DNA of 64,000 nt from Schmidtea polychroa (taxonomy: Eukaryota). Positions 4,882-59,149 of the stretch are shown piece after piece; position 1 is the first letter of the stretch, and each line of letters starts with the position of its first letter. The stretch spans positions 194,246,001-194,310,000 of the forward strand of contig CM097885.1 in the NCBI GenBank assembly GCA_044892525.1, read 5' to 3'. Made by a program: the position numbers and the translations under genes. The notes under the pieces were generated by a model that had not been told where the DNA came from, did no database searches, and saw only the letters and a program-made list of their open reading frames with translations.

Positions 4882-5110
4882 TTGAAAATTTGACAAAAAA
4901 TGAAATTAATAAGGAAGTTATAATAATAGCTTTAACTTATGTTGTTTTAGAAATTGGAACGCATGCGTTTGCCAAGTCAGACAAGTTAGAAAATTTGATA
5001 GACATCGCTACCCGGCTAGTAAACTAATATCTAATGAACTGGGTAAAGGAAAAGGTAGTTGGAAAACACTGTGTTCATCTCTAACTGAAAAGAAAAATGA
5101 GAAGCAAGAA

Positions 5111-18600: not shown

Positions 18601-18986
18601 GCCCATTTAATTAAGGAATTAACTGTTAACTTTTCTTTTGGTAAAGTTTGATAGACATTGTATAGGTTTTTCATAAACATTTCAAAAATATAAATATTAC
18701 TATAATTCTCATTCCAATTGATTTGGGTTTTATTGTAGCAGGTTGTATTAAATGTACAAAAGAAATCTAAAAGAAATGGTATAAACCCCATAGAAGCCAT
18801 ATTTTTTTCTTTAAATTCACAGTGATCAATTTTTAATTTAAAAATCGAATTACGCACTGGCACTATAATGACGATAATTAAAAGAGGTACCAAAATTTCT
18901 GAAATCAAAGTTATAGGTTTCCGTTTTTTCATTGTAAAGTTTTTCCAAAGCAACACTTTCAACTGCCTTATAAATATTGAATTCAT
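12618..18986 (-). CDS. ABCA1: Full-length ABCA subfamily lipid transporter (ABCA1/4/7-like), single exon, 2122 aa
   Basis: LLWKNFT N-terminus; MASMGFIPF..FFC....C exocytoplasmic motif; two TMDs; NBD1 GHNGAGKTTT/LSGGMKRKLS/LDEPTAGVDP; NBD2 GVNGAGKTTT/LSGGNKRKLS/LDEPTSGMD; exact orthology not determinable by eye. Confidence 0.95.
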   Translation of the reverse strand: MNSIFIRQLKVLLWKNFTMKKRKPITLISEILVPLLIIVIIVPVRNSIFKLKIDHCEFKEKNMASMGFIPFLLDFFCTFNTTCYNKTQINWNENYSNIYIFEMFMKNLYNVYQTLPKEKLTVNSLIKWATIHKFEIDQLISYTIPISKLLSPLIANFKETNMGNLTMSEPIITQIFNFFCGSHENDFTEFYKFLFISIKNMSNQSNVSGQFMNESSVTCGTNFEKFFGNVNSNIIIKTISPWVFGKIYFSPNSPLTREIMRRANITFETLDYIRLASVEWRLHFRDWIIKVVNNSELINELKSCKSSYFYFDQNLCEKINTILNFQDIQSIINKISSIFSLLEKALNCTELNKFVPINESIAIENFVKQPMKNVFAIIVINDAFRYLTPSNATFLNYQIRIPSNRIDSTKHFKVTDEFWTAKPRRNTLQDFKYYTSGFLLLQEAIDQAFIEIVTNNLSIEVGSSMQIMPYPCYVDDVFIRLLTNMMPLMLMIAWLHSFTELMKSIVYEKERRLKEFMRVMGLGNSVHWIGWFLSTITVLVFPITIMTLLLTYSSILSFSSPGVVFLVLLLYVVSFICQVFMISLFFDKANIASVTGSVIYVVLYVPFVVFIRMQSDLSVGFYYFGGLSAQVAFCNAINFIGYWEQSTEGAHFGNLFDGAIIDLKFGVGHCMVMLIVDSVLYLSAAWYLESVFPGQYGVGKPWYFLFTRHYWRPNGNIRLTHEINNNALLIIDCDNESNFENEYTNLQIGISIRNLVKTYPGAKSRAVDDLNLNFYQSQITAFLGHNGAGKTTTISILAGIFSPTSGTAFILNEDIRTNMESIRKKIGLCPQYNVLFDNLTVGDHIYFYGFLKGMKIEEIQKLIPIIIEDVGLTAKINTFSKKLSGGMKRKLSLALAFIGNPDIVFLDEPTAGVDPFARRGIWDLLIKYRSKERTIILTTHQMDEADYLSDRIAIISQGKLQCCGSSVFLKRKFGDGYYLTLVKNLKAQKEDFSKGISSSGEKILNFIKSHISDAKMRNETTTQWSVVLPQNDINSCKFSSLFADLDGELVNFNALSYGLSDTSLEEVFIKVADDPSKRSEETKNDLISENLNKIAVCGDIDNQEPLLYLDVINTHSMNELLISSNYDITNKLLSGFSLLKQQIIGLQIKRFHYMKRNKKGIFAELILPILMITLNIVLLKLAKPLESEPAMEISPWLMIPKARSINLNTFYRKENQINFLTNRLENEYEINNDEFRRKENQINLLMDQLEMEYRSDLGESGIRCMNPSIYRLANYRCFPENRNNKWTPIPNGNIPLITPGCDCNTTGYQICNDTLSGGPPNSYRIMTSSDKLNNLTGYNISDYLLKNFRKLSRKLYGGFQLLLPSTFGWSTKLIGDSPFWEELRKFVNVSQNNHSEADLKSLKFIDYLQKTFKLYGIKTTFTRIWTNSKGYVSMPAYANIFSNLLLRSRLNKSTAKTSDYGISVSNYPIITQSNVAVELTNQMLLEMSLAIFVILGLSFIPASFVIFLIEERVSGSKRQQFVSGVNPYVYWLSNFLWDMTKYIIPIIIIIIIFIAFDYQSYIGSKNAAAFILLLFFYGLAIIPLMYPFSFFISTPSTAFAIVYAYNLLVGTITTNSTFILDILQKKYKNLKEVNDILKNVFLIFPQFNLGRGMMDLFLNYFYNNNSMGRYEYNAFQWNIAGEKLFSLLMSSIGWWIVLIIIESGIINRILCGKMKNLYLERIEIRNTEDDDVNLERERMSSNNQSDDVLRVLNLTKIYNVYLKLKDKCGKKVNDNYIENKGREIAVNNLCFGVREGECFGLLGVNGAGKTTTFKMLTGEEEITYGNAFINGQSIISDMIGAHRNMGFCPQFDALHALLTCEEQLTFYCRIRGIESDKIKSVVNTSLKNLSLTPYANKMTQNLSGGNKRKLSTAIALIGNPKVIFLDEPTSGMDAESRRFLWNVIQKMTNEYKIAVILTSHNMEECEFLCNRVSIMVNGEMKCLGSVQHLKSKFGDDYYVKIRLYSNKCQLSDRLEVKSMIENSFQRGISLKDENFLTLLYRFELSFTKLSVIFNFFHKMKNDGLIIDFTVYQTSLDDIFIDLVKDKVFPTIPNGNAEIIVPALIENNIIGSFEESHCQETYA

Positions 18987-19279
18987 GATTGCTGAAAAGA
19001 ATAATTTAACAAAAAAATTAATCTTAAAAATATAATAATTAAATATCTGCTATAAAATAGATTGTATTACACAAATTGACATGATTAAATTCATAGTTTT
19101 AAACAATAATTATGCAAAATTCAATAAAAAGTGCAAAAATTTATTATCGACCGTTCTCATCTACTATCACATCAAATTATCAGTAAATCATGACGCAAGA
19201 GACAAAAATTTATCCTCGATGGAAATAACGGTCATATTCTATTTTCGGCCCTCTTCATCTGTTGATTTCTGTTATAAAC

Positions 19280-28729: not shown

Positions 28730-31700
28730 TTATGAAGCATATTTCAAAGGCATCATCTTTTCCAGTTGGATTTCCAAGGAAATTCGCTGCTGTTGAAGTT
28801 GCTTTAAATTCCGGCTCATTTCCTGATTTAATGCCCCTAGTGAATCGCATTGCATTTTTGTGGTACTAATTAAATAATTATAGGCTTCTTTACGGTCATC
28901 GCTGGAAATAGTTTTTATTGAAACCAAATATACAAAACTACATCACTGACCTATCCAAAATAGAATTCAAAGACATAACTATGGCAACAGGTGATTGCTG
29001 AAAATATAAACATTTTGTATTTTTATTAAAAAAAAACTTCAGTTCGAGTGAATTCAGGCCAAATGCAAACCTATTTATATTTGTGACTTCAAAGATTCAT
29101 ATAAAAACAAATATTAAGCAATATAAAATATAACTTCTCAGTAAACGCAGAATTCTGTTGTGAAATGCTTCCATGAAATAGTCTGAGAAGTCTATTCTTA
29201 CATTTTTAAAACATTTTTGTATTTTTGCCCATTAAAATATTCTGGGATTTAGAATTTGGCCGCCCTTATCGCCATCTTGATAGAGCTATGTATGACTAAA
29301 CTAATCCCTTAAAGGTTCCCCTCATGGGCGTCCGTAAGAGGGGGCACTTTTTTTCCAAAACCATTCTATTTTTCGATTAATTTAAAAATAAAAAATTAAA
29401 TTTAAAGAGGCTTTTTGTTTGTTTCTAATGTTAAACACTGTTTTTTATTTATTTCACTCAAATATTGATTTATAAATTCTATTTTCGATTAATTTAAGAA
29501 AAAAAATTAATAAAAAAATTTAATTTAAAGAGGCTTTTTGTTTGTTTCTAATGTTAAACACTGTTTTTTATTTATTTCACACAAATATTGATTTATAAAT
29601 TCTATTTTCGATTAATTTAAGGGAAAAAAATTAATAAAAAAATTTAATTTAAAGAGGCTTTTTGTTTGTTTCTAATGTTAAACACTGTTTTTTATTTATT
29701 TCACTCAAATATTGATTTATAAATTCTATTTTCGATTAATTTACGAAAAAAAATTAATAAAAAAATTTAATTTAAAGAGGCTTTTTGTTTGTTTCTAATG
29801 TTAAACACTGTTTTTTCATTTATTTCACTCAAATATTGATTTATAAATACATTGATTAATAATAAAATAAATTATTAAAATTAGTTATTAATTTATATTT
29901 TAATTTGTTGTTTTATTTAAGTAATCTATATCTATACTTTGTAATTTAAATCAAGTTTAATCAGTGTTTCGATAGAAGTTAGTTTATCATTAGTTTATTT
30001 TATATTAATTATAAAATGAGCGAAGTCTATAATTATAATTTTGATTTCAAGGATGTAAATGATTTTTAATTAATAAATGAAATTTTCGATTGATATAATA
30101 TCTATTATAACGATCTTTTTAAATTGTTAAAATTCCTCTTTACACCGGGAAGTGTTAATATGGCACTAAAAATTTGTATCCGATTTCGTTTTGCTGATAA
30201 ATGGTTAAGATTTTTGAGGTTTTATGAAATCTTGCGTTGTCCATTATTAAAACTTTGTTTGCATTACATGTGAATTATGGAACAAGATGATTTAAAATAA
30301 ATTCTTTAAATGAAGTAGAATTATACGCGCCCAACTTATATTCTTAATATATTAAACCATCAATTTCAATTGCACAAATTAGACTATTGTTTATTCCCTT
30401 ATTTGCAGGTATGATTTACTGGTGAATATACCTTCTTTGAGTATGTAAACTAAATCCAGTTTCATCAAGGCAAATCAAATTGCCATCAGAAATTCTGGAA
30501 ACTTCGTTTGTATATATTGCTCTTGCATTAATATTAGCTAAAGAGTTACGCTCAATCGGAATTAAGGAAAGCCTTTTTCTTGTCCATGATTGTTTTTTAA
30601 GTTTTCTAGACACTCGAGACTGAGAAATTTGAATGTTACAATTTTCATTGACCGCTTGTATTAATTCTCGTTGGTTAATTGCATTGTTACATGATATTTT
30701 ATTAAATATAACCTGCTCAATTTCAGTATTTATAGAATTACGAATTCTACATGAGTTCTTCCTTTTTTCTCCAGCATCTTCAAAATTTACTCCGTTTTGC
30801 TTGCTTTTTAATATTTCATTACGTTCTGACTGTGTAACTGCATTGTTTCAGAATTTTTTTTATTGTACAATGTTCGTCTTCGGCCATTTTTAACACAATA
30901 TTGTAAATTTCTCTTGTAATGTTTGTAATGAAATCCATGTGTTAAAGGTTTTTCAGTTTTACATAAAAGTTATTGTTCTCAATATAAATCTTTTTCCATA
31001 TAGATGTTGAGGTAATAAAAGAATCAAATAAATTAATAGAAATTATATTTATTAGAATTGAATTGTTTTTATAATTAAATGGAGAGATGTGAAAATTTGG
31101 TTAGGGATAGAATCGATTGGGTAAAGAAATAAAAAAAGAACAGGTGTGAGAAAGTGTATTATAATAGGTGAAAAGTACAAAAAAAAATTTTATTTTTGTT
31201 ATATTGTCAAATCAAAACATAATTATAATTTTGTTTCTTACCTTTTTAGAAATGGATATACGAAAGTATTTAAAAAGGCAACAAACTGAAGACACGACGA
31301 CAGAATTAGATTTACCTGTTACTAAGAAAAGCAAAATTGAAGACAATTCAAGCAAAATTGAGGACAACTTGCAGGATCAATCTCCAATAAAGACAAATAT
31401 TTGCCCAAATACAAATGAAACAAGGCTCTGTTCACAAGAAAATGATATCGGTGTATACATTAATTTATCAAATAATATTAAAAATGATCTCAAATTCAAC
31501 CTCCTGACAGTCGATACAAAAATACCAACAGAAAGCTATGATTTCAAAAAAGATTCAAAAGGAAAGCGTTGTTTCCGCTATGCTTGGTTAAGTTATTCAG
31601 TTAGTTTAAAAGGAGCAGTTTGCACATTTTGCATACTTTTTCCCCAGCCAGTAAATCGTGGTTTTCAAGGTGCATTCATCACAGGACCTTTTACAAAATT

Positions 31701-34700
31701 CAAAGATTTTCATGAAAGTGCCAAAGTCATCAATCAAGTGCATGGCATAAAAATCCATTGGCTTGTGCTGCAAAGTTCTTACAATTAAGGGAAAAGCCAG
31801 AATTGAACATTGTTGGTCTAAAGCGCCAAGTAGATAATAGAAAAAATTTGGATCCGATTTTATCAACTGACTTAGCACTTAGAGGGAAAACAAGTGCGAG
31901 TGCAAATGTGCAAAGCCTCTACGATTTCAGGATTGAAGCTGGAGGTGAAGTACTCAATAATCATTTGGTAACTTCACCAGCCAATGCAAGCATGCAGCCA
32001 ATCTGTGCGCATAGAACATGAGCTAATTAAGTTGACTGAAAAAGCCATAATGGAAGAAATTGTTTCAATGACCAATAAATCCACTGGATTTTCAATCATT
32101 GGAAATGAGAGTGCTGACATCTGGAAAGGAACAAATTTCCATAGGAGTTCGTTTTGTGAATTCTAGCAGCACAGAAACTGTTCTAAGAATTCCTTAGATT
32201 TGTAAAACTGGATCATTTTGATAAAATCATTGATCAGTGCTTAAGATTTAAATTAAACCTTGACAAAATGTATGGTCAAGGCTATGATGGCTGCTCTACA
32301 ATGGCTGGCAAAGAAGGTGACGTTCTGCCAAAAATTAGGAGCAAATGTCCTAAAGCTGTTTTGTGCATTGTGCATCACATCGACTTAATCTTGTGATCAA
32401 TGATCTCAATGTACCAGATGTTAGGAATGCAATCGGAACAATTAAGAACATTATTAGATTTTGTCGAGAAAGCCCAAAGAGAAGAAGTCTGATTCCAACT
32501 GTTCCCTTGCTTTGCAAAACACGTTGGTTTGAAAAAAAAAGTATCAGAATTTTTGTTGCAAGTTTTGAAGACATTTTTGATCAGCTGAGTTCACTGGCCA
32601 TCGAAGCAAATGGTAAAACACGACAGAATGCCCACCAGTTACAGTGTGCTTCAAGTACAAGTTTTCTAATTTGTCTTCAAATCATCACTTACTACTCCTC
32701 AAAATTAGAGTCAGTAGCACAAGCCCTACAATCAACACAATTAGACATTCTGAAAGTTTTTGACCACGTCCAAGAGCTCCTAAAAATCTTCCACACTCAT
32801 AGACAAAATGCCGAAGAGTTTTTTAAGACAATTATTTCTCAAAGTGAGAAATTGGCAGAACAATGTAAAAGGCAAACACACCGTTCAAATAATGGTGGTT
32901 CAACTGTTGAAGAATACTTTCGAAGATCTGTCTTTATACCATACTTGGATTCAATCATCTCATCGCTGGAGAGCAGATTCAATGACAATAACAAAATCAA
33001 TTTTAGTCTATTTTCACTTCACCCAGTGGAAATGTTGAAACTTTCAAAAGATGAATTCAAAACTCACACAGAAAACATCATAATGGAGTATCAAATTGAA
33101 AACTTTGATGCTGAGGCAAGCACTTGGTTTGAAATGTGGTCAAATAAAAAGTCGGATTTTGAAATCAAAAGTTGCAATGGAATGATGGATTTATTACAAT
33201 TCACAGACCTTTGAAAGCAGTTCTTATTGCTTTAACATTGCCAAGATCATTTAGCACACTGAGAAGAGTCAAAACGTGGCTAAGGTCAACAATGTGTGAA
33301 AATAGACTTTGTGGACTTTGAATGAAGAGTGTTCATCGTGACAGAATCAATGACAATAAAAAAAAGCTAAAAGTAATGGACAAAGTGATCAATAAATTTG
33401 TCAAGATCACAGACGTTTGCAGTTTCTTTTCAAAAAATAATATTTATGAAAAAGTTTGTAATTTTGTTTTATAATTGAATAAATATTTATGGAAAATATA
33501 CGAAAAAGAAGTTTTTTATGTTTTTTAACTCTGTTTATTCCTAAAACCACATTAATGTTTCAATTATAAAAATGACTTTAATTGATGTACTATTATTAAT
33601 CTGATTATATATAGGAACAATTTTTTTTCGTAAATGAGCATAACAAGAATAACAAGGACATGTTCTTTCAATACCCGGCTCTTTCAATATCCAAGATTGC
33701 TTATTTACTTATTTTTAGGCTAATCTCAGTAAACTTCCTCATATTGAATAAGGACATGTTCTAATGTTCTTTCAATACCCGACTCTTTCAATATCCAAGG
33801 CTCTTTTAATGTCAAGATTGCTTATTTACTTATTTTAGGCTAATCTCAGTAAACTTCCTCATATTGAATAAGGACATGTTCTAATGTTCTTTCAATATCC
33901 AAGGCTCTTTCAATATCCAAGGCTCTTTCAATATCCAAGGCTCTTTCAATATCCAAGGCTCTTTCAATATCCAAGATTGAAACTTCTCATATTGAATAAG
34001 GAATGTTCTAATGTTCTTTCAATATTCAAGATCTTTATCTGCTGTTTCCAACACATTGATAACTCATCACAAATTACCTTAACCTTCCTAAGGAAGACCA
34101 CTTAGGGTAAATTTGTACCCCAATGCTTGTTCACTGTGATATTGCTAGTTTAAAGGTTTTAAATAATTTTAACGTATAAAAATAAAATAAAAATATGACA
34201 GAAACAAGTGTTTACAAAATGGACATCACTTATATTCCTGCATATAGTAACACATTACTAATCACAAGTTTTACATATTATAATGCTAGTGGAATGTTCT
34301 GTACACACAAACACTGAACTCGTTGAATAAAGGAATAAAGTACTAGAGAAATTAGTAAGAAGTAAAGAATTCAAACGCCAATCTGAAATGTGAAATAATC
34401 GTAAGAGAAATGATGAGGAGTCAATTGAAACTGTAAGAAACAAAAACTAGGGTAAATATCAAAATAATGAAGAAATGAATTTATTAGTTTCCTTTGTACT
34501 TTACTAGTTTATTTCAGCTCTATTAATCTCCTTTGTATCCAATTAACGTATATTACCAAATAGTATCACTACACCTAATAGTATCATTAATACTACACCA
34601 TAACTAAATTCATTTATATTTAGTGATACTATTTAAATAATATCACCATATTAAAACATTGAAATAAATGAATGGAAGAATTCAGAGTCTGTTGAGTATG

Positions 34701-45620: not shown

Positions 45621-46673
45621 AAAGTACCTGTTGTTTTTTGAAAATAACAATGANNNNNNNNNNNNNNNNNNNNNNNNNNNNNNNNNNNNNNNNNNNNNNN
45701 NNNNNNNNNNNNNNNNNNNNNNNNNNNNNNNNNNNNNNNNNNNNNNNNNNNNNNNNNNNNNNNNNNNNNNNNNNNNNNNNNNNNNNNNNNAACACTCAAC
45801 TTACTGGTTCTTATATATGTACAAATATATCAAAAGACAAAGTGATTTATAAAACTTTTATTATAAAGAAAAATTTACCAATATGAATTTGTTGCTAGAT
45901 TACAAAAATCCAAAAATCCTTCAAATATCCAACCGAATATGCTTGTATGTACTGTGTGAATGTTATGTATTCTCTTGCTGTGTTGCGTGTAGGCTTTTGA
46001 ACGTTTCTGTTTGTCTGTTCGAGTTTTAGCACTAATAAGGATTAACCTTTTTAGTATGTTAACGCGGTTAAAATTTTGGGGCGAAAAAAATGAATTTTGA
46101 CTCGCTATTTATACTTTTTCTTTTAAGAGAAAATGATTAAGAATTTAATTAATATATTTTAAGTATTCTTAAGTATGCTTAAAAAATGAATTTAATATAT
46201 TTTAGCAGATGTTTTTCCTTAATACTCTAACAGATATTATTTAACCAGATGTTTTTTTTTTATAATTAATTTAGTACTCTAACAGATATTATTTAACCAG
46301 ATGTTTTTCTTACTCTATTATTTAATAATTACAATTATTTTTCCTTACAACTTGCGTGCATTATTTTAACAAAATTTAGATTTCTAATTATTTTATAGTA
46401 TTATTATTATTTCATTATATTATTTATCTCTACTTATAAAACTAATTATTAATGATTTAATTTACCCTTTTATAAAAATATTAAATGTATACGGAAAGAT
46501 ATATTAAATAAAAATTAACAGCTACTCAAAAAATATGTACAAACTTCTATAGAATAAAAATAATTAATATATACACCAATAATATCATAAAGAAATAAAA
46601 TAAGTAAAATAAAGAATAGTCCAAATGACACAGCATGAATAAAGTAAATAATGAATTTAGTTAACCATAATTG

Positions 46674-48209
46674 TCAATATTTTGAATTGTCCGGCTTTGG
46701 TTGTCTGGGTTCCACGTAGATATTGACTCTGAACTTGTTGCTGCCCGTTCTATAGTAGTGTGTTAGTTCAAACTCTTCAATTCTTCTTCCTCTGTCATCC
46801 AACACTCCTCCTAGGGCCGATAAAGTAATGTCCTCATTACCTTTATCGCTAAGGACCAATTCGATTCCGCAACCGTTTATATACATTGTTGCTCTTTGGA
46901 ATCCTTTCTTCAATGCCAATTTTAACACATCACCATCAATAATTCGTCTGCCGAAGTGTTGATGTATTTCTTTTTCCGAGATAGTGGATCTTCCCTCTTT
47001 GATGATGAACATTGGCTCCTCCAACTCGACATTTGGCTCTGGTCCTAGTTCGTCATCTATCTGCATTGCTTCGCTCGGTGAGAAATATTCTTCATCCGAG
47101 TCTAAATCACATTGTGGGTCAGCATAGTTGTAACTACTTGATGTCTGAGGTTCTTCCTTTATTTTGATTGCTTGTGGTTTTTTGTCCTCTTTGACGAATA
47201 TGATGTCATCATCGCTGTCCATTAGTTCATCTTCAAAGGTACGTCTGCTCCCATCTTTATTGAATTTCAATTCTCTTTGTGAGGGTTCGATATATATATC
47301 TTCCTCAAATTCCTCTGGCTCATCGCTGTTTTCTTCTATTGGACTGAGTTGATGGCCATTATTTTTCTTTTGGAATGCTGTCATGTCCCACCTTATGACT
47401 TCTTCCCACTGCTTTTCGACCAAGAGGTAAATGACTTTTGCGATTAGTGTTGTATCTTCTGCTGAGAACGGTTCGGGCTTTTTGAGGATGTTGTTGATTG
47501 CTTTGTCTTTCTTCCATTTTGGGTGTGTTGCGATTACTTTGTATGCGAGATTCGATAGTTTGATTCTGTGTGGTGCTACATTTTTGACGAATGAACACAT
47601 GAACACATCTTCAGCTAACTCTCTGACTCCCATGACATTGTACAGATCTAATGTCAGCGTCTTGAGTTTCTTTATTATTTCGTATCCCACAATGATTTTT
47701 CCGAGTAGCAGCTTCTGTATGTCGATCAGCGCTTGGTATTCGTCTTCATTTCCTCTTATTGAATCCCTGTCTGCTCTTGTCTTCTCCGGGTAATAATGTT
47801 GGATTTTGGTGCGTGGAGTCACCTTTTTATTGTATACGATTTCTCCTCTAAAATTTCTGATGCATATCTCTACTGGTCTGAGATTGTTATTGATGTCGCA
47901 TACTTCTTTGACATCGACGAACATGATTGCCCTTTGTCGTTCGGGGATTGACAACTGTTGATGTGTGAATGACATCCGTTTCGAGATGAAATCCTGATGT
48001 ATCACGATTTCCGACTGTATCATCTCTAATTCTCTGAAAGGATTGGGTATGGTTGGGACATATAGAATTTCGATAGCCATCACACAGGGTAAATTGTTCA
48101 TTTGGATGACCAAATTGTTGAAATCGTTTGGCACGCTTCGATTTGGTTCATCGTCTTGATCACCACCGTGCAGTTGCTTGTTGTTATAATAGGGATTCGT
48201 TGTTGGCAA
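46674..48209 (-). CDS. Retroelement accessory ORF, 511 aa from a TTG start (first in-frame ATG later): degenerate REX4/ISG20-like DEDDh fold, acidic linker, unknown C-terminal domain
   Basis: FVDVKEV..VEICIRNFRGEIVYNKKVTP..IQKLLLGKIIVGYEIIKKLKTL..VRELA..KLSNLAYKVI..FSAEDT..IYLLVEKQWE parallels REX4 motifs I-III. Confidence 0.7.
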   Translation of the reverse strand: MPTTNPYYNNKQLHGGDQDDEPNRSVPNDFNNLVIQMNNLPCVMAIEILYVPTIPNPFRELEMIQSEIVIHQDFISKRMSFTHQQLSIPERQRAIMFVDVKEVCDINNNLRPVEICIRNFRGEIVYNKKVTPRTKIQHYYPEKTRADRDSIRGNEDEYQALIDIQKLLLGKIIVGYEIIKKLKTLTLDLYNVMGVRELAEDVFMCSFVKNVAPHRIKLSNLAYKVIATHPKWKKDKAINNILKKPEPFSAEDTTLIAKVIYLLVEKQWEEVIRWDMTAFQKKNNGHQLSPIEENSDEPEEFEEDIYIEPSQRELKFNKDGSRRTFEDELMDSDDDIIFVKEDKKPQAIKIKEEPQTSSSYNYADPQCDLDSDEEYFSPSEAMQIDDELGPEPNVELEEPMFIIKEGRSTISEKEIHQHFGRRIIDGDVLKLALKKGFQRATMYINGCGIELVLSDKGNEDITLSALGGVLDDRGRRIEEFELTHYYRTGSNKFRVNIYVEPRQPKPDNSKY

Positions 48210-48223
48210 ATTGAGACCTCCGT

Positions 48224-48622
48224 TCAGGTCATATGGAATAGTATTCTATGTGGGACTTTTCTTCCTTCATTTGCTGCGATATCTGCATTTTTGAACATAT
48301 CATAGGTGCCTATTATATCTCTCAGCTTTATCCTTCGGGCTTCATTAAATTTAACTAAGTGCATTTCTCTTTCTTCGATTTCGCACTTCATTTCATTGGG
48401 TATGCAGACCTGGTTAGGGAAACTTCTGATGGTGATTGGTGAGCCGTCTGAGGTGATTTTATTTTGCAAATTTTTGTAGAAACTGTGGTATAGTTTTTGA
48501 ATGGAGCAGCTGTATTGTTGGACTGGACGTTGTATGGGATTGAATGGTTTGGGATTGACTCTGATATTGTTGGATTGCATTTTTCTAAAAAAACAATATA
48601 AACATACATATTTACAGCGCAT
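48224..48622 (-). CDS. Small unknown ORF (132 aa from ATG) between pol and the exonuclease-like ORF
   Basis: Open frame, present in both arms; no family recognised. Confidence 0.4.
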   Translation of the reverse strand: MRCKYVCLYCFFRKMQSNNIRVNPKPFNPIQRPVQQYSCSIQKLYHSFYKNLQNKITSDGSPITIRSFPNQVCIPNEMKCEIEEREMHLVKFNEARRIKLRDIIGTYDMFKNADIAANEGRKVPHRILFHMT

Positions 48623-48725
48623 TTGAGGCTTTACCTTATACGCTTCAATATAAATAAAAATATAAATATATGTGAGTTTAAATATTATCATTGACCAATA
48701 GGAATTGAAATTATCTATATTATTT

Positions 48726-49550
48726 TTAAACCAATGAGGACATTGTGTATTGTCCTGGCCTATACTTATCCAAATGAAAATGCCCTGGTACATTTTTGAC
48801 CAGTCGGTGCCGATACCGCTGCCTTTTCCATTTGTATTTTTTGTACACTTGAACACTGGTGATAATAGCTAAAAAACTCAATGCTAAAATGCTTGATGAG
48901 ATTACATAGAAAGGCCATCGTGGTTTAGCAGGTTTTACTTGAAATGCTCTGAGTTCATCCCAGTTATTTATGATTATGGGTTTTCCCGTAGGTAATTTTA
49001 TCAGTTTCCTATCAAACTGTCTTTGATTTTTTATTATTAATTTTTTATATACTTGTCTAGTTACTTTAAATGTCGTTTCTCTGTCTGTGTTTGTTATCGT
49101 TTGTAATGACTGTTGGGTGGATGCCGAATTTGTGGTAGTTATTGTTATGGTGGTTGTTGGCATGCTATTATCTATGGGCTTATATATGTTTGTGATAGTG
49201 GTTCTTATTCTTTTGCACCTTACTTGTGATGTGTCAACTAAGGTATTCCATTGTGCACAGAGTGTGTAATTAGTGTTAGGCTGTAGATTAATGAATTCAA
49301 CATTATCTCCTCTTTCAAATTCATTAGTTGATCTATTCTCAATATTTTTCATAAGCTTGGATGTATCGTCCCCAGTTTCTAGATATAAGTCTCTTATGGG
49401 TGATTTATTCAAGTTATATACTTTAATCTTATACGGTGAAATGTTGATTAAAATATCTTCCTCCATGTATTTTACTGAGTGTATGCTCTCATTTTCTACT
49501 TCAGTTGATTTACATAGCCCTATAATTGTTAAAAAGATCGCTGCCATCAT
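48726..49550 (-). CDS. Type I membrane protein module in frame with integrase: signal peptide, FN3-like domain, Thr-rich stalk, TM helix, basic tail (274 aa from ATG)
   Basis: MMAAIFLTIIGLCKS; NLQPNTNYTLCAQW..CKRIRT; PTTTITITTTNSAST; WPFYVISSSILALSFLAIITSVQVY then KKYKWKRQRYRHR. Confidence 0.7.
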   Translation of the reverse strand: MMAAIFLTIIGLCKSTEVENESIHSVKYMEEDILINISPYKIKVYNLNKSPIRDLYLETGDDTSKLMKNIENRSTNEFERGDNVEFINLQPNTNYTLCAQWNTLVDTSQVRCKRIRTTITNIYKPIDNSMPTTTITITTTNSASTQQSLQTITNTDRETTFKVTRQVYKKLIIKNQRQFDRKLIKLPTGKPIIINNWDELRAFQVKPAKPRWPFYVISSSILALSFLAIITSVQVYKKYKWKRQRYRHRLVKNVPGHFHLDKYRPGQYTMSSLV

Positions 49551-52500
49551 CAGTGCTTTTTGTGATCGTAATCCATATTTGTGAGGTGGTTTTTCTATTA
49601 ACTCTGTTTCTGCTAGTTTGCATCTATTAACTTGTACTATTATCGGATCCTCATTTTTATGTTTTTGTAAATGCAGGTTTTCATGTACTACTTTTACTAC
49701 TTCGTATGGTCCTTTAAATGGTCTTGCTAATTTAGTTGTTTTGCCTTTACCTACTTGTGGAGACATAAGTCTAACCTTATCTCCCACTTTAAAATTATGA
49801 GGTTTACTATTTTTATCGTAATCTGCCTTATATTGTTCTTGTCTAAATCTAACTTTTAAGTTTGCAACTTTATATACCTCTTGTAATCTCTCTTGCATTA
49901 ATGTTACATAATCTGGCGCATCTAAATATTGTGATACTCGAGGTTCAAAAATTGTATCAATCGGTGTCGCAGGCTCTCTTAAGAACATTAGAAAATATGG
50001 TGAATATCCCGTTGTCTCATTTGGTGTGATATTATGGATGTATGTGCATTGATTAACGTATTCATCCCAATCATTTTGGTTTCTTCCCACAAACACAGCT
50101 AATCTACTTAGCAATGTCCCATTGAATCTCTCTACTAAACCATCGGTCTGAGGGTGGTATGCTGTTGTGTTGATTTTATGCATGTTAAATATGTTAGCTA
50201 CTCTTTTTATAGTTTCACTCATGAAATTTTTCCCTTTATCTGTTAATAGTTTTCTCGGTGTACCGATTTTAAAGATTATTTTTTCTAAAAGTAATTTAGC
50301 TACGGTTTCTGCTGTTTCATCTTTAGTAGGAAATGCCTCTGCCCATTTTGTAAAATAATCGCTAAAAACTAGTATGTGTTTATTCCCGTTAATTGTTGTG
50401 GGTAGTTTACACAAAAAATCCATTGCGCACAGTTCCATTGGTGATGTTGTAGCTGGGATTGGATGTAAAGGTGCTTTAGTTTTTGTTCCTGTATTTTTTC
50501 TAGTTGCGCATATTGTGCATGCATTACACCATCTCTTGACATCCTTTTTCAAATCGTCCCAATAATATTTTTGCATCAATCTGCTTGCTGTTTTCCTACT
50601 TGATAAATGACCTCCTAGAGCACCATCGTGATATTGTAATAGAAGAATTTGTCTTAATCTTTGTGGTACTACTATTAATTGTTTACCGCTAAAATCCTCA
50701 ATAACAATTAACTTCTTACAGATTTTATACTTTTGGTTAGTTCCCTTTTTTATTTCTTCTCTTATCTTGAAGAGTTCTGGATCTTTCATTTGTTCCTCAT
50801 ATATTTCTATTGGTTTTTCAGTTACTAATGCAAAAACTTCTAGTGCTCCTAACTCTGGAATTCGTGATAATGCATCTGCATTCCTGTTTATTCTACCTGG
50901 TTTGTATGCAATCTTTATGTGCATGTCTTGTATTTTCATTGCCCATTTTAACAGTCTACTGGATGTATCTTTATGTTTCCATAACCCTTCTAATGGCTTA
51001 TGGTCTGTTCTAATTACTACTTCAGTTCCATATATGTATGGTTTAAATTGTTTTAATGCAAAAACTATAGCATAACATTCTTTCTCAATTGTTGAGTACC
51101 TAATCTGTGCTCCTTTTAATGTTTTGCTTGCATAAGCTATTACATAATCTTTACCCTTTTCCTCTTCTTGTCCTAAGACTGCCCATACGGCCTTCCCGCT
51201 GGCGTCTGTCATGACAATGAACTATTTTTTAAAGTCTGGGTATCTTAATATCGGTGCTGTTATTAATTTTTCTTTTAGTTGATCAAAAGCTTTTTGGTGT
51301 TCATCTTTCCATTTCTTTTGTGGCTTGTTAATTTTATCGTTAATCTCTTGTACTATTAACACTCCTTTACTCTCTCCCTTTGTTTTGACTCCTTTTGTTA
51401 ACTCAATTAGTGGTGCTGCTATTTTTGCATAATCTTGTATGAATTTACGATAATATCCTGTGAGACCTAAAAATCCCTGTACTTGTTGTAATGTTTTTGG
51501 AACTGGGAATTTTTTAACTACTTCAATTTTATCGGGATTAGGTATTATACCATCTACTGTAACTATATGTCCTAAGAATAATGCTGAAGGTTCTGCCCAT
51601 TTACACTTAGGGGGTTTTATTTTGATTTTTGCTTTTCTTAATCTTTCTAGTACGTTAGCTATATCTTTTAGATGTTCCTCAAATGTTTTTGATGAAATTA
51701 ATATATCATCTATATATACTGCGCAACGTTGTACGTCTACTAATACTGTATTCATTAAACGTTGAAATGTTGCTGGCGCATTAGTTAACCCAAAAGGTAA
51801 TCTTGTATATTCATATAAACCGTCTTCTATCACAAAAGCTGTCTTTTCCGCATCCCCCTCTTACATTTGAATTTGCATGTAGCCTTTATTTGCATCTATT
51901 ACTGTGAAATATTTAGTATCTCTAAGTTTATCATATTGTTCTTGTGCTTTTGGGAATGGGTATGAGTCTTTTACTGTTACATCATTTAATTTACGATAAT
52001 CAATGCACATTCGAATTTCCCCGTCTTTCTTTCTAACTGGTACGATAGGTGATGCCCATTGTGAAAAACTTTGTTTTATTACGCCTGCCTCTTTTAATTC
52101 TTTAATTTGTCGTTTTATTTCCTCCCTCAGTTTATATGGTACACTATAGGGTCTCTGTTTTATTGGTCTAGCATTCCCTGTATCGATTACATGTTTGATA
52201 ATGTCAGTATCTCCTAAATCAAATTCGTGTTTTGCAAAAACATCACTGTATTCGTCAAGTAATATTTGTAGTTGTAGTTGTTGTGTTTCATTTAGATAAT
52301 TATTATTTATTTTAATTTTATCATAAAATTCGATATTATTCGCTCTACTCTGTTCGACCATTCTTTCACTGACATCCTTCGTCATCGACATCTCACATAC
52401 TTCAAATGTTTGCTCTAATTCACCTTTGAACAACTTTCCCAATTTTGTACCTTTATGAATTTTTACTTTATTTCTTTCGTAATTCGCGATTCTTATTGGA

Positions 52501-53183
52501 ATTATCCCATTATTTGGAATTACACACTCGTCTGTTAACATTACATTATGATTTCGTGATATTGCCGTTTCAGGCTCAAAAATGAAAGTGTCCTCACTTT
52601 TAACATTAACTTTTACTGGAATTATATGATCACTTTGATACTCTAGTTCAAATGTCTCTAATGCAATTACCTCAGTAAATCTTGCGTCTTGATATATTGC
52701 CTTCCGTTTGACTGTACTATCCGTTAAATCGATTACACAGTTTTTTAACTTTTTGAGTATGTCCATCCCAAGGACACATACGCATTTACATTCTGCTACT
52801 ACCTTGAAGACATGTTCAACCACTTGATCCGAAAAGTGGACTGTTAATTCGATATCTCCTTTTAATGGTATGTAATGTGACGATAATGAAATTACTCTAT
52901 CTCTTGTGCTCACGATATTTTTCTTTTGGTTTCCGGTTAACTGATCTTCACGAATCATAGAAGCTGCTGCTCCTGTGTCACATAATGCCTTTATTATCGT
53001 ATCATTTATCACTATTTGTAATTTAGGCCTTGCTTCATTTAACCCTTCTAATATATCGTCAAGTTCTAACCCGTAACATCCATAAGTTTTTCTTGAAACA
53101 CAATGACAATTACCATTTTCACCTGGGATTCTAATTTCAATATTATTTCTCAATTCTGTCAATTGTTCTCTTTGATTATCATA
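48726..53183 (-). pseudogene. pol: Ty3/gypsy pol (PR-RT-RNaseH-IN) continuing into an FN3-like/TM extension; one reading frame broken only by two in-frame stops
   Basis: PR ALCDTGAAAS; RT WASPIVPVRKKDG, LPFGLTNAPATFQR, YIDD; RH TDAS, EKECYAIV, TDHKPL; IN HHCC zinc finger, MDF..SDYFTK..TDKG..PQTDGLVERFN, GPY; stops TAA 51861-51863 and TAG 51222-51224 with no frameshift. Confidence 0.95.
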
Positions 53184-54992
53184 TTACCCAACATGTGGTT
53201 GCTCAATATTTTCTGATCTGTTTGTGTCGTCCTCTTTCTCATTGGTGATCATTATTTCACCCTCTTCCCTTCGACTTTTCATCCGTTTGATTTCCTTATC
53301 GTGCCTCGCAGTGATCAAATATTTGGCTATGAATGGACATAAACATGCTATCATTTTATATGAATTACCAAAAACTTGTCTCAGTTGTCTTAACGAAACT
53401 AATGATGAGCAAATCATTTTCAATAGTGCTACTGTATAATATATACCCAATATAGTGGAAAACGTATTTCCGAGAATCGCAAAATATCCCCATATGCTGT
53501 ATAATACTCTATACACAACTTTCTTGAAGTGCTCTTTTGATAATAATACATCAAAGTTGTAATTTCCTCCATAACTATTTTCGATGATTTTGTTTACCAT
53601 GATAGAAAGAACTTTTTCTTTTTCATGAGGAAATAACATATGTTTTCTGGCGCTCTCTATCGCCTCTCTCGTATACATCCCATTGTTATCCATTTCGTTG
53701 ACTTCCTGAAATTCTAACTTTTTCTCAAGTTCAGTTAGTTCTAGTTTTTGTGGTTTAGTCGCTTCTTTTCTATCTGACATTGTAATCCACATATCATCAT
53801 TTATTTTGTATAATGGATCTAATAGATTAGTACATTTATCAATTTTTCTCGGAACATAGTCTTTATCTGTTAATATCCTTGTTATTGGTTGGAGGTATAC
53901 AGTTTCTCCTTTATACACTACTGGCAATTCGTTTGTGCACTTATTATTCGTTGCTAACGATACGCTAACCGGTTTACATTGAAATGTTTGTATCACTTCA
54001 CCGACAACTCTTGCAAATGTCCCTTTTTCTGCAAATAAAATTGGTGCCATTAAATCTGGGTTTGTGACTGCAACCGCCATCTTTGCCCTTAATATTTCTC
54101 TATTAAGTTTACAATCGTTTGCGATAGTTGCTTGGTACACCTTGTCCAATTGTACTAACTGATGATGATAGAAATAGTCAATTTTATTATTAAAATATGA
54201 TGCTAGCTTGACGTCGAATTTATCTATTCTCGATTTTGCCTCTTTAATTTCACTTCCGCTGATATAAATTCCCTCATAATTTGTTTGTACGACTGCCTTG
54301 CCACATTTTATGCTTTCACCTTTTCCTACAAATCTCATCGCCTCTGTTTCAGAATCTGACATGTATATTGTTGGGGTATCTCTCTCTTGAATTATCGTTG
54401 CTCGTCGTTTTTGGTCTTTGATGTTCTTGGATTCTACATCCGTAAACTGTTTACCTCCTATCGTTCTGAATTTCAGTGTCTTTAATTTAGTTAGATGACA
54501 TTCGTATTTATTCACTCTGTATATGATCATTGACTCGCCTGTATCACAGCTTGTCTCATCTAATGTGCAGAACTTATGTGTCATCATTTTCTTTGATGCA
54601 CTATCAAATGACGCTTTGAATTTCCTTAATTCAATATAATACTGCCGTCTCACTACAATATTGTCTGCCACATGCCCCCATATTTTATACTTTCCTCCTT
54701 CACAATATCCTCCTGTTGATGACCATCCCACGACATTTACTAATTGTCTTACTCGTGCTCCTACCTGAGCATCTAACTCAAATCCATCCGGCGTTTTTAT
54801 CTTTTTTGTTTTAAATGCATTTTCGCATTCAACTGGCGTTATTATTATTGCTTCTGGTGCCCATGTTGGGGTTAATATTGTTCTTGCCACCTTGTTACAC
54901 ACAAAACTTTCCTCTGAATATTTGACTATACATTCTCCTGCTTCTGTGTGAATGAAATCAGATTCCTGATATATATGGAAAATCTTGGGGTC
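53184..54992 (-). CDS. env: Chuvirus/gB-type (class III) envelope glycoprotein, N-terminally truncated at the inversion junction
   Basis: Cys-rich ectodomain with CEGGKY, CTLDETSCDTG, CKLNREIL, CTNELPVVYKGETVYLQPITRIL; C-terminal hydrophobic segment IWGYFAILGNTFSTILGIYYTVALL; frame open from 54992. Confidence 0.8.
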   Translation of the reverse strand, partial: DPKIFHIYQESDFIHTEAGECIVKYSEESFVCNKVARTILTPTWAPEAIIITPVECENAFKTKKIKTPDGFELDAQVGARVRQLVNVVGWSSTGGYCEGGKYKIWGHVADNIVVRRQYYIELRKFKASFDSASKKMMTHKFCTLDETSCDTGESMIIYRVNKYECHLTKLKTLKFRTIGGKQFTDVESKNIKDQKRRATIIQERDTPTIYMSDSETEAMRFVGKGESIKCGKAVVQTNYEGIYISGSEIKEAKSRIDKFDVKLASYFNNKIDYFYHHQLVQLDKVYQATIANDCKLNREILRAKMAVAVTNPDLMAPILFAEKGTFARVVGEVIQTFQCKPVSVSLATNNKCTNELPVVYKGETVYLQPITRILTDKDYVPRKIDKCTNLLDPLYKINDDMWITMSDRKEATKPQKLELTELEKKLEFQEVNEMDNNGMYTREAIESARKHMLFPHEKEKVLSIMVNKIIENSYGGNYNFDVLLSKEHFKKVVYRVLYSIWGYFAILGNTFSTILGIYYTVALLKMICSSLVSLRQLRQVFGNSYKMIACLCPFIAKYLITARHDKEIKRMKSRREEGEIMITNEKEDDTNRSENIEQPHVG

Positions 54993-55350
54993 TTAATAAT
55001 CATAAATAACTGGGATGAACTCAGAGCATTTCAAGTAAAACCTGCTAAACCACGATGGCCTTTCTATGTAATCTCATCAAGCATTTTAGCATTGAGTTTT
55101 TTAGCTATTATCACCAGTGTTCAAGTGTATAAAAAATACAAATGGAAAAGGCAGCGGTATCGGCACCGACTGGTCAAAAATGTACCAGGGCATTTTCATT
55201 TGGATAAGTATAGGCCAGGACAATACACAATGTCCTCATTGGTTTAAAAATAATATAGATAATTTCAATTCCTATTGGTCAATGATAATATTTAAACTCA
55301 CATATATTTATATTTTTATTTATATTGAAGCGTATAAGGTAAAGCCTCAA

Positions 55351-55749
55351 ATGCGCTGTAAATATGTATGTTTATATTGTTTTTTTAGAAAAATGCAATC
55401 CAACAATACCAGAGTCAATCCCAAACCATTCAATCCCATACAACGTCCAGTCCAACAATACAGCTGCTCCATTCAAAAACTATACCACAGTTTCTACAAA
55501 AATTTGCAAAATAAAATCACCTCAGACGGCTCACCAATCACCATCAGAAGTTTCCCTAACCAGGTCTGCATACCCAATGAAATGAAGTGCGAAATCGAAG
55601 AAAGAGAAATGCACTTAGTTAAATTTAATGAAGCCCGAAGGATAAAGCTGAGAGATATAATAGGCACCTATGATATGTTCAAAAATGCAGATATCGCAGC
55701 AAATGAAGGAAGAAAAGTCCCACATAGAATACTATTCCATATGACCTGA
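55351..55749 (+). CDS. Second copy of the 132-aa small ORF
   Basis: One amino-acid difference seen (NNTRV versus NNIRV). Confidence 0.4.
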   Translation: MRCKYVCLYCFFRKMQSNNTRVNPKPFNPIQRPVQQYSCSIQKLYHSFYKNLQNKITSDGSPITIRSFPNQVCIPNEMKCEIEEREMHLVKFNEARRIKLRDIIGTYDMFKNADIAANEGRKVPHRILFHMT

Positions 55750-55763
55750 ACGGAGGTCTCAAT

Positions 55764-57299
55764 TTGCCAACAACGAATCCCTATTATAACAACAAGCAAC
55801 TGCACGGTGGTGATCAAGACGATGAACCAAATCGAAGCGTGCCAAACGATTTCAACAATTTGGTCATCCAAATGAACAATTTACCCTGTGTGATGGCTAT
55901 CGAAATTCTATATGTCCCAACCATACCCAATCCTTTCAGAGAATTAGAGATGATACAGTCGGAAATCGTGATACATCAGGATTTCATCTCGAAACGGATG
56001 TCATTCACACATCAACAGTTGTCAATCCCCGAACGACAAAGGGCAATCATGTTCGTCGATGTCAAAGAAGTATGCGACATCAATAACAATCTCAGACCAG
56101 TAGAGATATGCATCAGAAATTTTAGAGGAGAAATCGTATACAATAAAAAGGTGACTCCACGCACCAAAATCCAACATTATTACCCGGAGAAGACAAGAGC
56201 AGACAGGGATTCAATAAGAGGAAATGAAGACGAATACCAAGCGCTGATCGACATACAGAAGCTGCTACTCGGAAAAATCATTGTGGGATACGAAATAATA
56301 AAGAAACTCAAGACGCTGACATTAGATCTGTACAATGTCATGGGAGTCAGAGAGTTAGCTGAAGATGTGTTCATGTGTTCATTCGTCAAAAATGTAGCAC
56401 CACACAGAATCAAACTATCGAATCTCGCATACAAAGTAATCGCAACACACCCAAAATGGAAGAAAGACAAAGCAATCAACAACATCCTCAAAAAGCCCGA
56501 ACCGTTCTCAGCAGAAGATACAACACTAATCGCAAAAGTCATTTACCTCTTGGTCGAAAAGCAGTGGGAAGAAGTCATAAGGTGGGACATGACAGCATTC
56601 CAAAAGAAAAATAATGGCCATCAACTCAGTCCAATAGAAGAAAACAGCGATGAGCCAGAGGAATTTGAGGAAGATATATATATCGAACCCTCACAAAGAG
56701 AATTGAAATTCAATAAAGATGGGAGCAGACGTACCTTTGAAGATGAACTAATGGACAGCGATGATGACATCATATTCGTCAAAGAGGACAAAAAACCACA
56801 AGCAATCAAAATAAAGGAAGAACCTCAGACATCAAGTAGTTACAACTATGCTGACCCACAATGTGATTTAGACTCGGATGAAGAATATTTCTCACCGAGC
56901 GAAGCAATGCAGATAGATGACGAACTAGGACCAGAGCCAAATGTCGAGTTGGAGGAGCCAATGTTCATCATCAAAGAGGGAAGATCCACTATCTCGGAAA
57001 AAGAAATACATCAACACTTCGGCAGACGAATTATTGATGGTGATGTGTTAAAATTGGCATTGAAGAAAGGATTCCAAAGAGCAACAATGTATATAAACGG
57101 TTGCGGAATCGAATTGGTCCTTAGCGATAAAGGTAATGAGGACATTACTTTATCGGCCCTAGGAGGAGTGTTGGATGACAGAGGAAGAAGAATTGAAGAG
57201 TTTGAACTAACACACTACTATAGAACGGGCAGCAACAAGTTCAGAGTCAATATCTACGTGGAACCCAGACAACCAAAGCCGGACAATTCAAGATATTGA
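55764..57299 (+). CDS. Second copy of the 511-aa exonuclease-like accessory ORF
   Basis: Same translation as 46674-48209 except terminal SRY versus SKY. Confidence 0.7.
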   Translation: MPTTNPYYNNKQLHGGDQDDEPNRSVPNDFNNLVIQMNNLPCVMAIEILYVPTIPNPFRELEMIQSEIVIHQDFISKRMSFTHQQLSIPERQRAIMFVDVKEVCDINNNLRPVEICIRNFRGEIVYNKKVTPRTKIQHYYPEKTRADRDSIRGNEDEYQALIDIQKLLLGKIIVGYEIIKKLKTLTLDLYNVMGVRELAEDVFMCSFVKNVAPHRIKLSNLAYKVIATHPKWKKDKAINNILKKPEPFSAEDTTLIAKVIYLLVEKQWEEVIRWDMTAFQKKNNGHQLSPIEENSDEPEEFEEDIYIEPSQRELKFNKDGSRRTFEDELMDSDDDIIFVKEDKKPQAIKIKEEPQTSSSYNYADPQCDLDSDEEYFSPSEAMQIDDELGPEPNVELEEPMFIIKEGRSTISEKEIHQHFGRRIIDGDVLKLALKKGFQRATMYINGCGIELVLSDKGNEDITLSALGGVLDDRGRRIEEFELTHYYRTGSNKFRVNIYVEPRQPKPDNSRY

Positions 57300-59149
57300 C
57301 AATTATGGTTAACTAAATTCATTATTTACTTTATTCATGCTGTGTCATTTGGACTATTCTTTATTTTACTTATTTTATTTCTTTATGATATTATTGGTGT
57401 ATATATTAATTATTTTTATTCTATAGAAGTTTGTACATATTTTTTGAGTAGCTGTTAATTTTTATTTAATATATCTTTCCGTATACATTTAATATTTTTA
57501 TAAAAGGGTAAATTAAATCATTAATAATTAGTTTTATAAGTAGAGATAAATAATATAATGAAATAATAATAATACTATAAAATAATTAGAAATCTAAATT
57601 TTGTTAAAATAATGCACGCAAGTTGTAAGGAAAAATAATTGTAATTATTAAATAATAGAGTAAGAAAAACATCTGGTTAAATAATATCTGTTAGAGTACT
57701 AAATTAATTATAAAAAAAACATCTGGTTAAATAATATCTGTTAGAGTATTAAGGAAAAACATCTGCTAAAATATATTAAATTCATTTTTTAAGCATACTT
57801 AAGAATACTTAAAATATATTAATTAAATTCTTAATCATTTTCTCTTAAAAGAAAAAGTATAAATAGCGAGTCAAAATTCATTTTTTTCGCCCCAAAATTT
57901 TAACCGCGTTAACATACTAAAAAGGTTAATCCTTATTAGTGCTAAAACTCGAACAGACAAACAGAAACGTTCAAAAGCCTACACGCAACACAGCAAGAGA
58001 ATACATAACATTCACACAGTACATACAAGCATATTCGGTTGGATATTTGAAGGATTTTTGGATTTTTGTAATCTAGCAACAAATTCATATTGGTAAATTT
58101 TTCTTTATAATAAAAGTTTTATAAATCACTTTGTCTTTTGATATATTTGTACATATATAAGAACCAGTAAGTTGAGTGTTNNNNNNNNNNNNNNNNNNNN
58201 NNNNNNNNNNNNNNNNNNNNNNNNNNNNNNNNNNNNNNNNNNNNNNNNNNNNNNNNNNNNNNNNNNNNNNNNNNNNNNNNNNNNNNNNNNNNNNNNNNNN
58301 NNNNNNNNNNNNNNNNNNNNNNNNNNNNNNNNNTCCAATCAGGATTAAGTGGTGTTGTATTTTGTCTCCTTTTTCATTTTATTTAGTTTTTCTATTGTTA
58401 TTTTCTTAATTGTAATGATTTTCTGCTTTATTTACTTTCTTTTATTTTTTCAAAAACGTTTTTATTTTAATGCTGATGGATGCTCTATTTTTTGTGTCTT
58501 TTCTTATTTTTATTGATTATTAGTTTTCCATTTATTTATTTCTTTTTTTAATTATTATTTCTAACTTTTCCATCATCTGATCACTCTTCAATGTTACAAT
58601 CCTTACTTATGAAAATAGGAAATCTTATTCTCAAAGAAGGAGTGAAAATAAGGGAAAATTACCATTTTCGAATCAATATATATAATTTGTGAATTTTCAT
58701 AAGCGTGTTTCTGTTAGCCCAACTACAGCTTTCCTGGGGAAAATTTGCATGGGCCCCTTAAAATACTTGTTGACTCCACACACAAAAAACTATTTCTATT
58801 TATCAAATTGTAAAAGTGAATTTCAAGCGCATGTTTAACAAATGAGCTATTTTGCCAAACAAAATTTATTAAAAACTAAATAAAGCAGAAATGTTAAAAA
58901 TTTATAATAATTTAAAATCAGAAAAAATGCAAAACAATATTTTACATTATTTTAAAATGAGAGGAGGAACATCAAATGTATATAAAACTAATGATTAATA
59001 TCAAAGTCAAAATTATTTTGCTATTTATTAAATTTCTATTTGTTTAATTAATTCTTAATCAATTTTAAAACGTCGCAAATTTTGAAACTTTTCTTATATT
59101 ATTATTTATAATAAAATTAAAATATTGTTTAATAAATATTTAAAATAAA

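Follow-up and report, generated by a model that had tools for sequence, protein, structure and literature searches.

A compact Ty3/gypsy errantivirus-type family in Schmidtea polychroa whose env lies between gag and pol in a single reading frame

The planarian element Burro carries env in frame between gag and pol and was stated to be the first such case (PMC6431247). GAG-ENV-POL errantiviruses with an HSV/gB-type env (HSV, herpes simplex virus) have also been reported from Nematoda, Bryozoa and Platyhelminthes, six of them listed from Schmidtea mediterranea, and elements with this order are not monophyletic (PMC13524379). In the same source the elements, including the close relative considered below, were classed as Ty3/gypsy by GyDB profiles, and its supplement shows the six S. 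mediterranea elements to be 32-64% identical to one another in the compared env region. The non-canonical endogenous retroviruses of nematodes likewise have env before pol in a metavirus, in a different host phylum (Sacco et al. 2022, as cited in PMC13524379). BURRO1 is expressed upon loss of SMEDWI-2, and Gypsy elements are enriched at synteny breakpoints (PMC8532177; PMC11410931). Here we describe an element of this kind in a 64,000-nucleotide stretch of the Schmidtea polychroa genome (assembly GCA_044892525.1, contig CM097885.1, positions 194,246,001 to 194,310,000), referred to below as the window. An initial annotation of the window had presented env upstream of pol as a novelty, a claim overtaken by the two descriptions of this order already published (PMC6431247; PMC13524379). 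With env-before-pol already in print, what the locus contributes is a further family member, not a new principle.

The minus-strand frame running from 54992 to 48726 encodes glycoprotein, protease, reverse transcriptase (RT), RNase H and integrase in that order with zero frameshifts, and open reading frames (ORFs) and Pfam domain order confirm the annotated placement of env upstream of, and in frame with, pol. The glycoprotein frame (54992-53187, 602 amino acids) matches PF24664, Monjiviricetes_fusion, at E 2.3e-82. It is a class III (gB/chuvirus-type) env that, compared with natural copies, is cut at its 5' side at position 54993, with no gag beyond this point and the element's own inverted 3' end in its place; it has lost ~36 residues of the ectodomain, and also an internal signal segment, that sister copies possess. 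A transmembrane (TM) segment of env is predicted at 53397-53453 from hydropathy only, by mapping back a Kyte-Doolittle peak of 1.79 in a sister copy. The frame was initially thought to hold a single TAA, which is incorrect, as it holds three stops, at the env/pol junction (53184-53186), in RT (51861-51863) and in RNase H (51222-51224). Pol is divided accordingly into the aspartic protease, a spacer and the RT N-terminus (51861-53183; RVP at E 7e-7, RVT_1), which end at the second private stop, the RT core and the start of RNase H (51222-51860; RVT_1 at E 2.8e-21), which end at the third, and the remainder of RNase H with an integrase comprising an H2C2 zinc finger and an rve core by Pfam profiles (49569-51221). 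The final ~280 codons of the frame (48726-49568) do not belong to integrase; they form a membrane-protein cassette of their own. Further along the same strand lie a second reading frame, ORF2 (46674-48868), broken into 214- and 523-amino-acid frames by a 1-nt deletion near 48146, and the polypurine tract and visible 3' long terminal repeat (LTR; 45791-46815), which is 99.2% identical to a sister LTR over 1,014 of 1,036 nt and whose last ~22 nt and flank are hidden in an N run. Among 27 private codon changes of the window copy, 10 are synonymous, 14 are non-synonymous and three are stops, the junction stop being one of these. What the window holds is a copy, decayed, 5'-truncated and duplicated in part, from a Ty3/gypsy errantivirus-type family that has expanded recently.

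The intact design of the family is visible in its sister copies. A 601-nt junction probe found 188 candidates in the 781-Mb genome. Forty of these were scored and the best 30 retrieved, the window copy among them; the 29 other loci include a tandem triplicate (n=3) and further near-duplicates, so that the independent count is somewhat below 29, and 25 of the 29 were extended into a set of longer copies. Reading codon 53184-53186 across genomic copies, as the initial annotation had proposed, gave a sense codon in 29/29 other loci, and contigs from public sequencing runs that cover the stop carry another letter there in all four runs. The position of the RT stop is also sense in every one of the 29, and that of the RNase H stop in all 22 longer copies covering the site (the remaining 3 of 25 lack coverage). 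The junction region is collinear at ~96-99% identity across the 29 loci, which are spread over four chromosomes and one contig, and one 872-nt contig from the public runs spans the env TM through the junction. Its absence from all 29 other loci examined marks the junction stop as a lesion of the window copy. The env-before-pol order is not due to chance, since 24 of the 25 longer copies keep a single open frame from the env TM to the protease DTG motif. Two arrangements among the copies are recorded as such: a pair of tandem copies sharing an LTR-sized overlap (L086-L089), and three matches with identical lesions ~54 kb apart (L010-L012), either a segmental triplicate or an assembly repeat.

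Full-length sister copies measure 12.9-13.7 kb (~13.5 kb) and are bounded by TG...CA LTRs of ~1.0-1.1 kb. LTR pairs were located in 17 of the 25 longer copies and are at least 99.2% identical in 15 of these 17; a primer-binding site is present in 20/25, and of the 16 copies whose two ends were both located, 12 show a 4-bp target duplication. Three of the 25 have an unbroken ORF1 of 3,057-3,090 codons (~3,060), in which Gag with a CCHC knuckle (residue ~390; zf-CCHC at E 0.0014), a Bcl-2-like domain (~810-900), env (951-1601), protease (from 1655), RT, RNase H and integrase are followed by ~280 further residues. The sister env matches PF24664 at E 2e-88 over profile positions 4-636 of 653; a phmmer search of env against the PDB gave no meaningful match. 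The gag-X-env-pol lineage that had been proposed is borne out, X being the Bcl-2-like domain, as is the class III nature of env, on the PF24664 match and the likeness to an S. mediterranea env given below. In both the window and a sister copy, profile searches return RVP, RVT_1, RT_RNaseH(_2), Integrase_H2C2 and rve in Ty3/gypsy-type order. BEL/Pao traits (a Pao-type protease, DUF1758/1759) had no Pfam match, and env lies 5' of the protease and not 3' of the integrase; BEL/Pao elements with a gB-like env are of the Tas and Anakin type.

Between natural copies of two subfamilies, dN/dS is 0.04 for Gag, 0.03 for the Env ectodomain, 0.06 for RT-RNase H, 0.05 for integrase, 0.11 for the env/pol junction (three differences only) and 0.27 for the post-integrase part, and purifying selection acts on every part of ORF1. 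The architecture extends to four database proteins of 1,582-2,855 amino acids with 36-39% env identity, in each of which a single chain holds both env and protease; two of the four have RT and integrase as well. The two subfamilies (sister copies L052-L091) are ~96% identical over gag-env-pol and ~70% over ORF2, where synonymous sites are saturated (region matching window 46800-48580). This disparity suggests an exchange of the 3' accessory module, which has likely been swapped between the subfamilies.

Unbroken copies run from Gag to the post-integrase cassette, which is of FN3 type, in one frame of ~3,060 codons, and we consider it probable (about 0.8) that this frame is translated as one polyprotein, predicted to cross the endoplasmic reticulum membrane four times. 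In a sister ORF1 the Kyte-Doolittle profile has peaks at residues 947, 1516, 2816 and 3031, taken in turn as signal, anchor, signal and anchor. The hydrophobic segment behind the Bcl-2-like domain would act as an internal signal placing Env in the lumen, and the Env anchor would bring protease, RT, RNase H and integrase back to the cytosol, where Gag and the Bcl-2-like domain would also lie; a second signal, after the integrase, would place the FN3 and stalk domain in the lumen. The flavivirus polyprotein is the comparison for membrane-crossing processing of this sort, and in a similar way host signal peptidase together with the element's protease may release the parts. Gag and Pol would then start out membrane-tethered beside Env, with neither frameshift nor readthrough needed, and the starting position proposed for Pol in the initial annotation, at the cytoplasmic side of a membrane, would agree with the hydropathy pattern.

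Several points weigh against this reading. It is drawn from DNA sequence, the read search having listed no run on record as RNA, and its topology from Kyte-Doolittle hydropathy; a fifth peak (1.68) falls within the protease, and a second pass at a weaker apolar stretch after the Env anchor would flip the topology. The Env ectodomain (window 53500-54992; sister residues 966-1490) has no N-glycosylation sequons where 3.5 are expected (p ~0.02, 2,000 shuffles), which is odd for a luminal glycoprotein, and the five sequons of the post-integrase luminal part are not above chance (p 0.16). At the N-terminal end, Gag in the family of the window copy has no direct Pfam capsid match, its capsid region resembling the gag of a neighbouring family (E 3e-19, 34% similarity), and the Bcl-2 match (E 1e-4) is under the curated cut-off. 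Two other families of the genome likewise have few sequons in their env.

For the junction itself, the initial annotation had left a choice between one polyprotein with a decayed sense codon, which stands, and programmed readthrough of the env stop giving a minor Env-Pol fusion, as in gag-pol readthrough, which does not. The stop in the window copy is all that speaks for readthrough, and the hallmark of that mechanism, a conserved stop between in-frame ORFs, appears in none of the 29 other loci or in the contigs of the four runs; as the window copy also holds two more stops, within RT and RNase H, we regard readthrough as highly improbable. Still harder to credit is an env-pol junction produced by fusion of two separate elements (a chimera) or by misassembly, one of the outcomes that had been named as refuting the annotation. 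The window copy is rearranged at its opposite end, which lends this idea some colour, but the junction is collinear in the other loci and spanned by independent contigs. Both readings fall because other copies carry a sense codon and contigs bridge the junction. A more serious competitor, though an improbable one, accepts the single DNA frame and has Gag, Env and Pol made mostly from spliced or internally started RNAs, the full fusion being rare and neither a 1:1:1 output nor a four-pass chain being a real product. Retroviruses and LTR elements usually produce far more Gag than Pol, in keeping with this proposal, and ORF2, whose frame overlaps the end of ORF1, has to be expressed by a separate route in any case. 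Against it, the domains of unbroken copies are joined without a frame break, Env and the FN3 cassette are each directly preceded by an in-frame hydrophobic segment that may be an internal signal, and this layout of signal and domain is retained in distant relatives. We therefore favour translation of ORF1 as one chain.

The post-integrase cassette (48726-49568 in the window, minus strand) comprises a signal-like segment (~49497-49553), a domain of ~100 amino acids with a predicted FN3 fold (49164-49508), a stalk rich in serine and threonine (14 of 25 residues), a TM segment (~48852-48908) and a basic tail. The domain contains the FN3 motif L-x-P-x-T-x-Y. Two elements ~40% identical to the family in Pol, P0002 and P0004, share the C-terminal layout and the motif with otherwise almost no similarity in this part; the motif is absent from a Burro-like ORF and from one other family (two of four distant tails). 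A further feature of P0002 is that its one polyprotein contains three retropepsin-like domains, including one behind the integrase. A six-sequence AlphaFold model of the domain (pLDDT 60, pTM 0.57) had FN3 domains in most of its top Foldseek rows, with a probability of ~0.99 and a best E of 0.011, and VIA-align gave a best FN3 Z of 7.7 (root mean square deviation 3.2, 92 aligned), below the tool's distinctive Z of 8. A profile search of the PDB found the FN3 repeats of Tie2 at E 0.004, Pfam fn3 reached only E 0.1, and the Atlas fn3 rows scored 0.88-0.89, under the 0.9 line. The FN3 assignment thus agrees across methods and is moderate in each. A phmmer search with the 280-amino-acid cassette against 1.84 billion representatives gave no match at E 0.001. 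We predict the cassette to be a second surface protein, and would guess at an attachment protein or a receptor decoy.

ORF2 has 730-777 codons where unbroken. The Atlas groups it with RNase_T clusters (score 0.93), and a two-sequence profile matches ISG20L2 and ISG20 at E 9e-4; the alignment, which covers neither Exo I nor Exo III, sets a lysine opposite the aspartate of Exo II; a single-sequence AlphaFold model was unusable (pLDDT 37.7) and gave no Foldseek match at E 0.001. ORF2 is likely a catalytically altered domain of the ISG20/RNase T (DEDDh) type. The rotifer LTR elements Juno and Vesta, with a DEDDy exonuclease as ORF3, also have an additional DEDD-superfamily ORF after pol, and the rotifer ORFs retain a DEED site (PMC5408684), in contrast to the lysine at the Exo II position of ORF2, whose closest structures, ISG20 and ISG20L2, are of the DEDDh type. 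Neither the FN3 tail nor ORF2 is described in the literature searched, which for ORF2 means the main text of PMC13524379, and Grohme 2018, Sacco 2022, supplements or Repbase may already hold a description of either. Taken together, the parts could make up a two-glycoprotein enveloped retroelement, a tentative picture that as a whole has somewhat more against it than for it: a four-pass polyprotein would supply a class III fusogen and a captured FN3-mucin-TM attachment or decoy protein, Gag with its tail-anchored Bcl-2-like domain and Pol would stand at the budding membrane 1:1:1 with Env, and the altered ISG20-like ORF2 would bind RNA.

In its overall plan the family resembles the errantiviruses of Chary and Hayashi (eLife), sharing with them a Ty3/gypsy Pol, an HSV/gB-type env, the GAG-ENV-POL order and a multi-copy state. 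Their criteria find their counterpart here in a gag that precedes env, an env that precedes pol, and hydrophobic segments that flank the class III env. The env of Platyhelminthes_Rhabditophora_Smed_errantivirus_3 differs from that of the window at ~39 of 245 positions counted by eye (~84% identity; PMC13524379), as in a sister lineage of the window family and not an identical sequence. The main text of PMC13524379 does not discuss a one-ORF structure, a Bcl-2-like domain, an FN3 cassette or ORF2, and its S. mediterranea rows list no LTR or primer site. Burro (GYPSM1; Arkhipova and Yushenova 2019, PMC6431247) likewise combines one polyprotein, a BCL2-like motif before env and an env resembling mononegavirus fusion proteins. 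It differs in size, exceeding 30 kb with 4,873-5,140 amino acids (PMC6431247) against ~13.5 kb and ~3,060 in the window family, and the FN3-type tail and ISG20-like ORF2 set the latter apart. Ankyrin, BIR and MATH/TRAF had no match in ORF1 or ORF2 at E 0.01, and the same Pfam scan did find ankyrin in a nearby Burro-like ORF and MATH in the ORF next to it. Pol of the window family is 40% identical to the Burro-like ORF of the same genome. Identity with Burro was rejected on size and cargo, and judging by these sequence comparisons the window family is a compact relative of Burro and sister to Smed_errantivirus_3. The Burro-like ORF (L035:3-9998) encodes env, protease, RT, RNase H, integrase and ankyrin, has a RING/TRAF-MATH ORF (L036:985-2421) after it, and adjoins a copy of the window family.

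Upstream of its truncated env the window copy repeats, in inverted orientation, the 3.2 kb at its own 3' end, comprising the end of the cassette, ORF2, polypurine tract and LTR (54996-58180, plus strand, mirroring 48977-45791). The arms differ by three mismatches and two small gaps over 3,184 aligned nt, and the whole locus (45791-58180) forms a 6-kb loop between 3.2-kb inverted arms with an LTR 3' end at both termini. Two letters at the inversion junction (54994-54995) fit neither side, with no microhomology, and the junction is unique in the assembly, having one genome match with up to two mismatches allowed; none of 25 sister copies has such an inversion. N runs hide the final ~22 nt of both outer LTR ends together with their flanks, so that the target duplication of this copy is unreadable, and the flanks farther out are unrelated, from which it follows that the mirror ends within ~115-130 nt of the LTR ends. 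Both arms carry the 1-nt ORF2 deletion, which none of nine same-subfamily copies shares, and six of eight private substitutions in the arm are common to both. These shared lesions imply that most decay predates the duplication, unless the arms were later homogenised; the window copy would have gathered most of its lesions first and then likely gained the inverted duplication, which replaced its 5' part.

To a rearrangement in place after insertion we give about an even chance. Snap-back cDNA, in which RT folds back while copying a decayed template and integrase inserts a molecule with two identical right-hand LTR ends, seems to us unlikely, if less so than an artefact. It would explain why both outer ends are LTR 3' ends with the mirror stopping so close to them, and the two untemplated letters at the junction. 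The lesions shared by the arms, however, call for a template that was already non-functional or for later homogenisation of the arms, the junction is single-copy with no inverted sister, and the termini under N offer no readable target duplication. That the inversion is an assembly artefact we judge the least probable of these. No contig bridging the inversion junction was found among the 32 of 911 pieces listed from four runs, which is neutral evidence, as the runs may come from other individuals and contigs drop rare variants.

Elsewhere in the window, a second decayed gag-env element of another family lies at ~800-6800 on the plus strand, with ~40% identity in env; in L048, a related copy, one frame contains Retrotrans_gag and CCHC, then a ubiquitin-like match, env and protease. 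An apparently intronless ABCA-type transporter, identified by eye from its translation and with a single open frame of 2,143 codons, occupies 12618-19049 on the minus strand, and a broken hAT-like transposase remnant, also named by eye, occupies 31168-33214 on the plus strand.

In this family the gag-env-pol polyprotein design takes a compact, 13.5-kb form, and it includes young copies and an env under strong purifying selection, features that would make the processing and packaging of tethered Gag and Pol easier to study than in the 30-kb Burro. The FN3-stalk-TM cassette, retained at ~40% Pol identity, is a possible second surface protein in invertebrate retroelements. It is in this post-integrase cassette and in the four-pass topology model that the main remaining interest of the locus lies.

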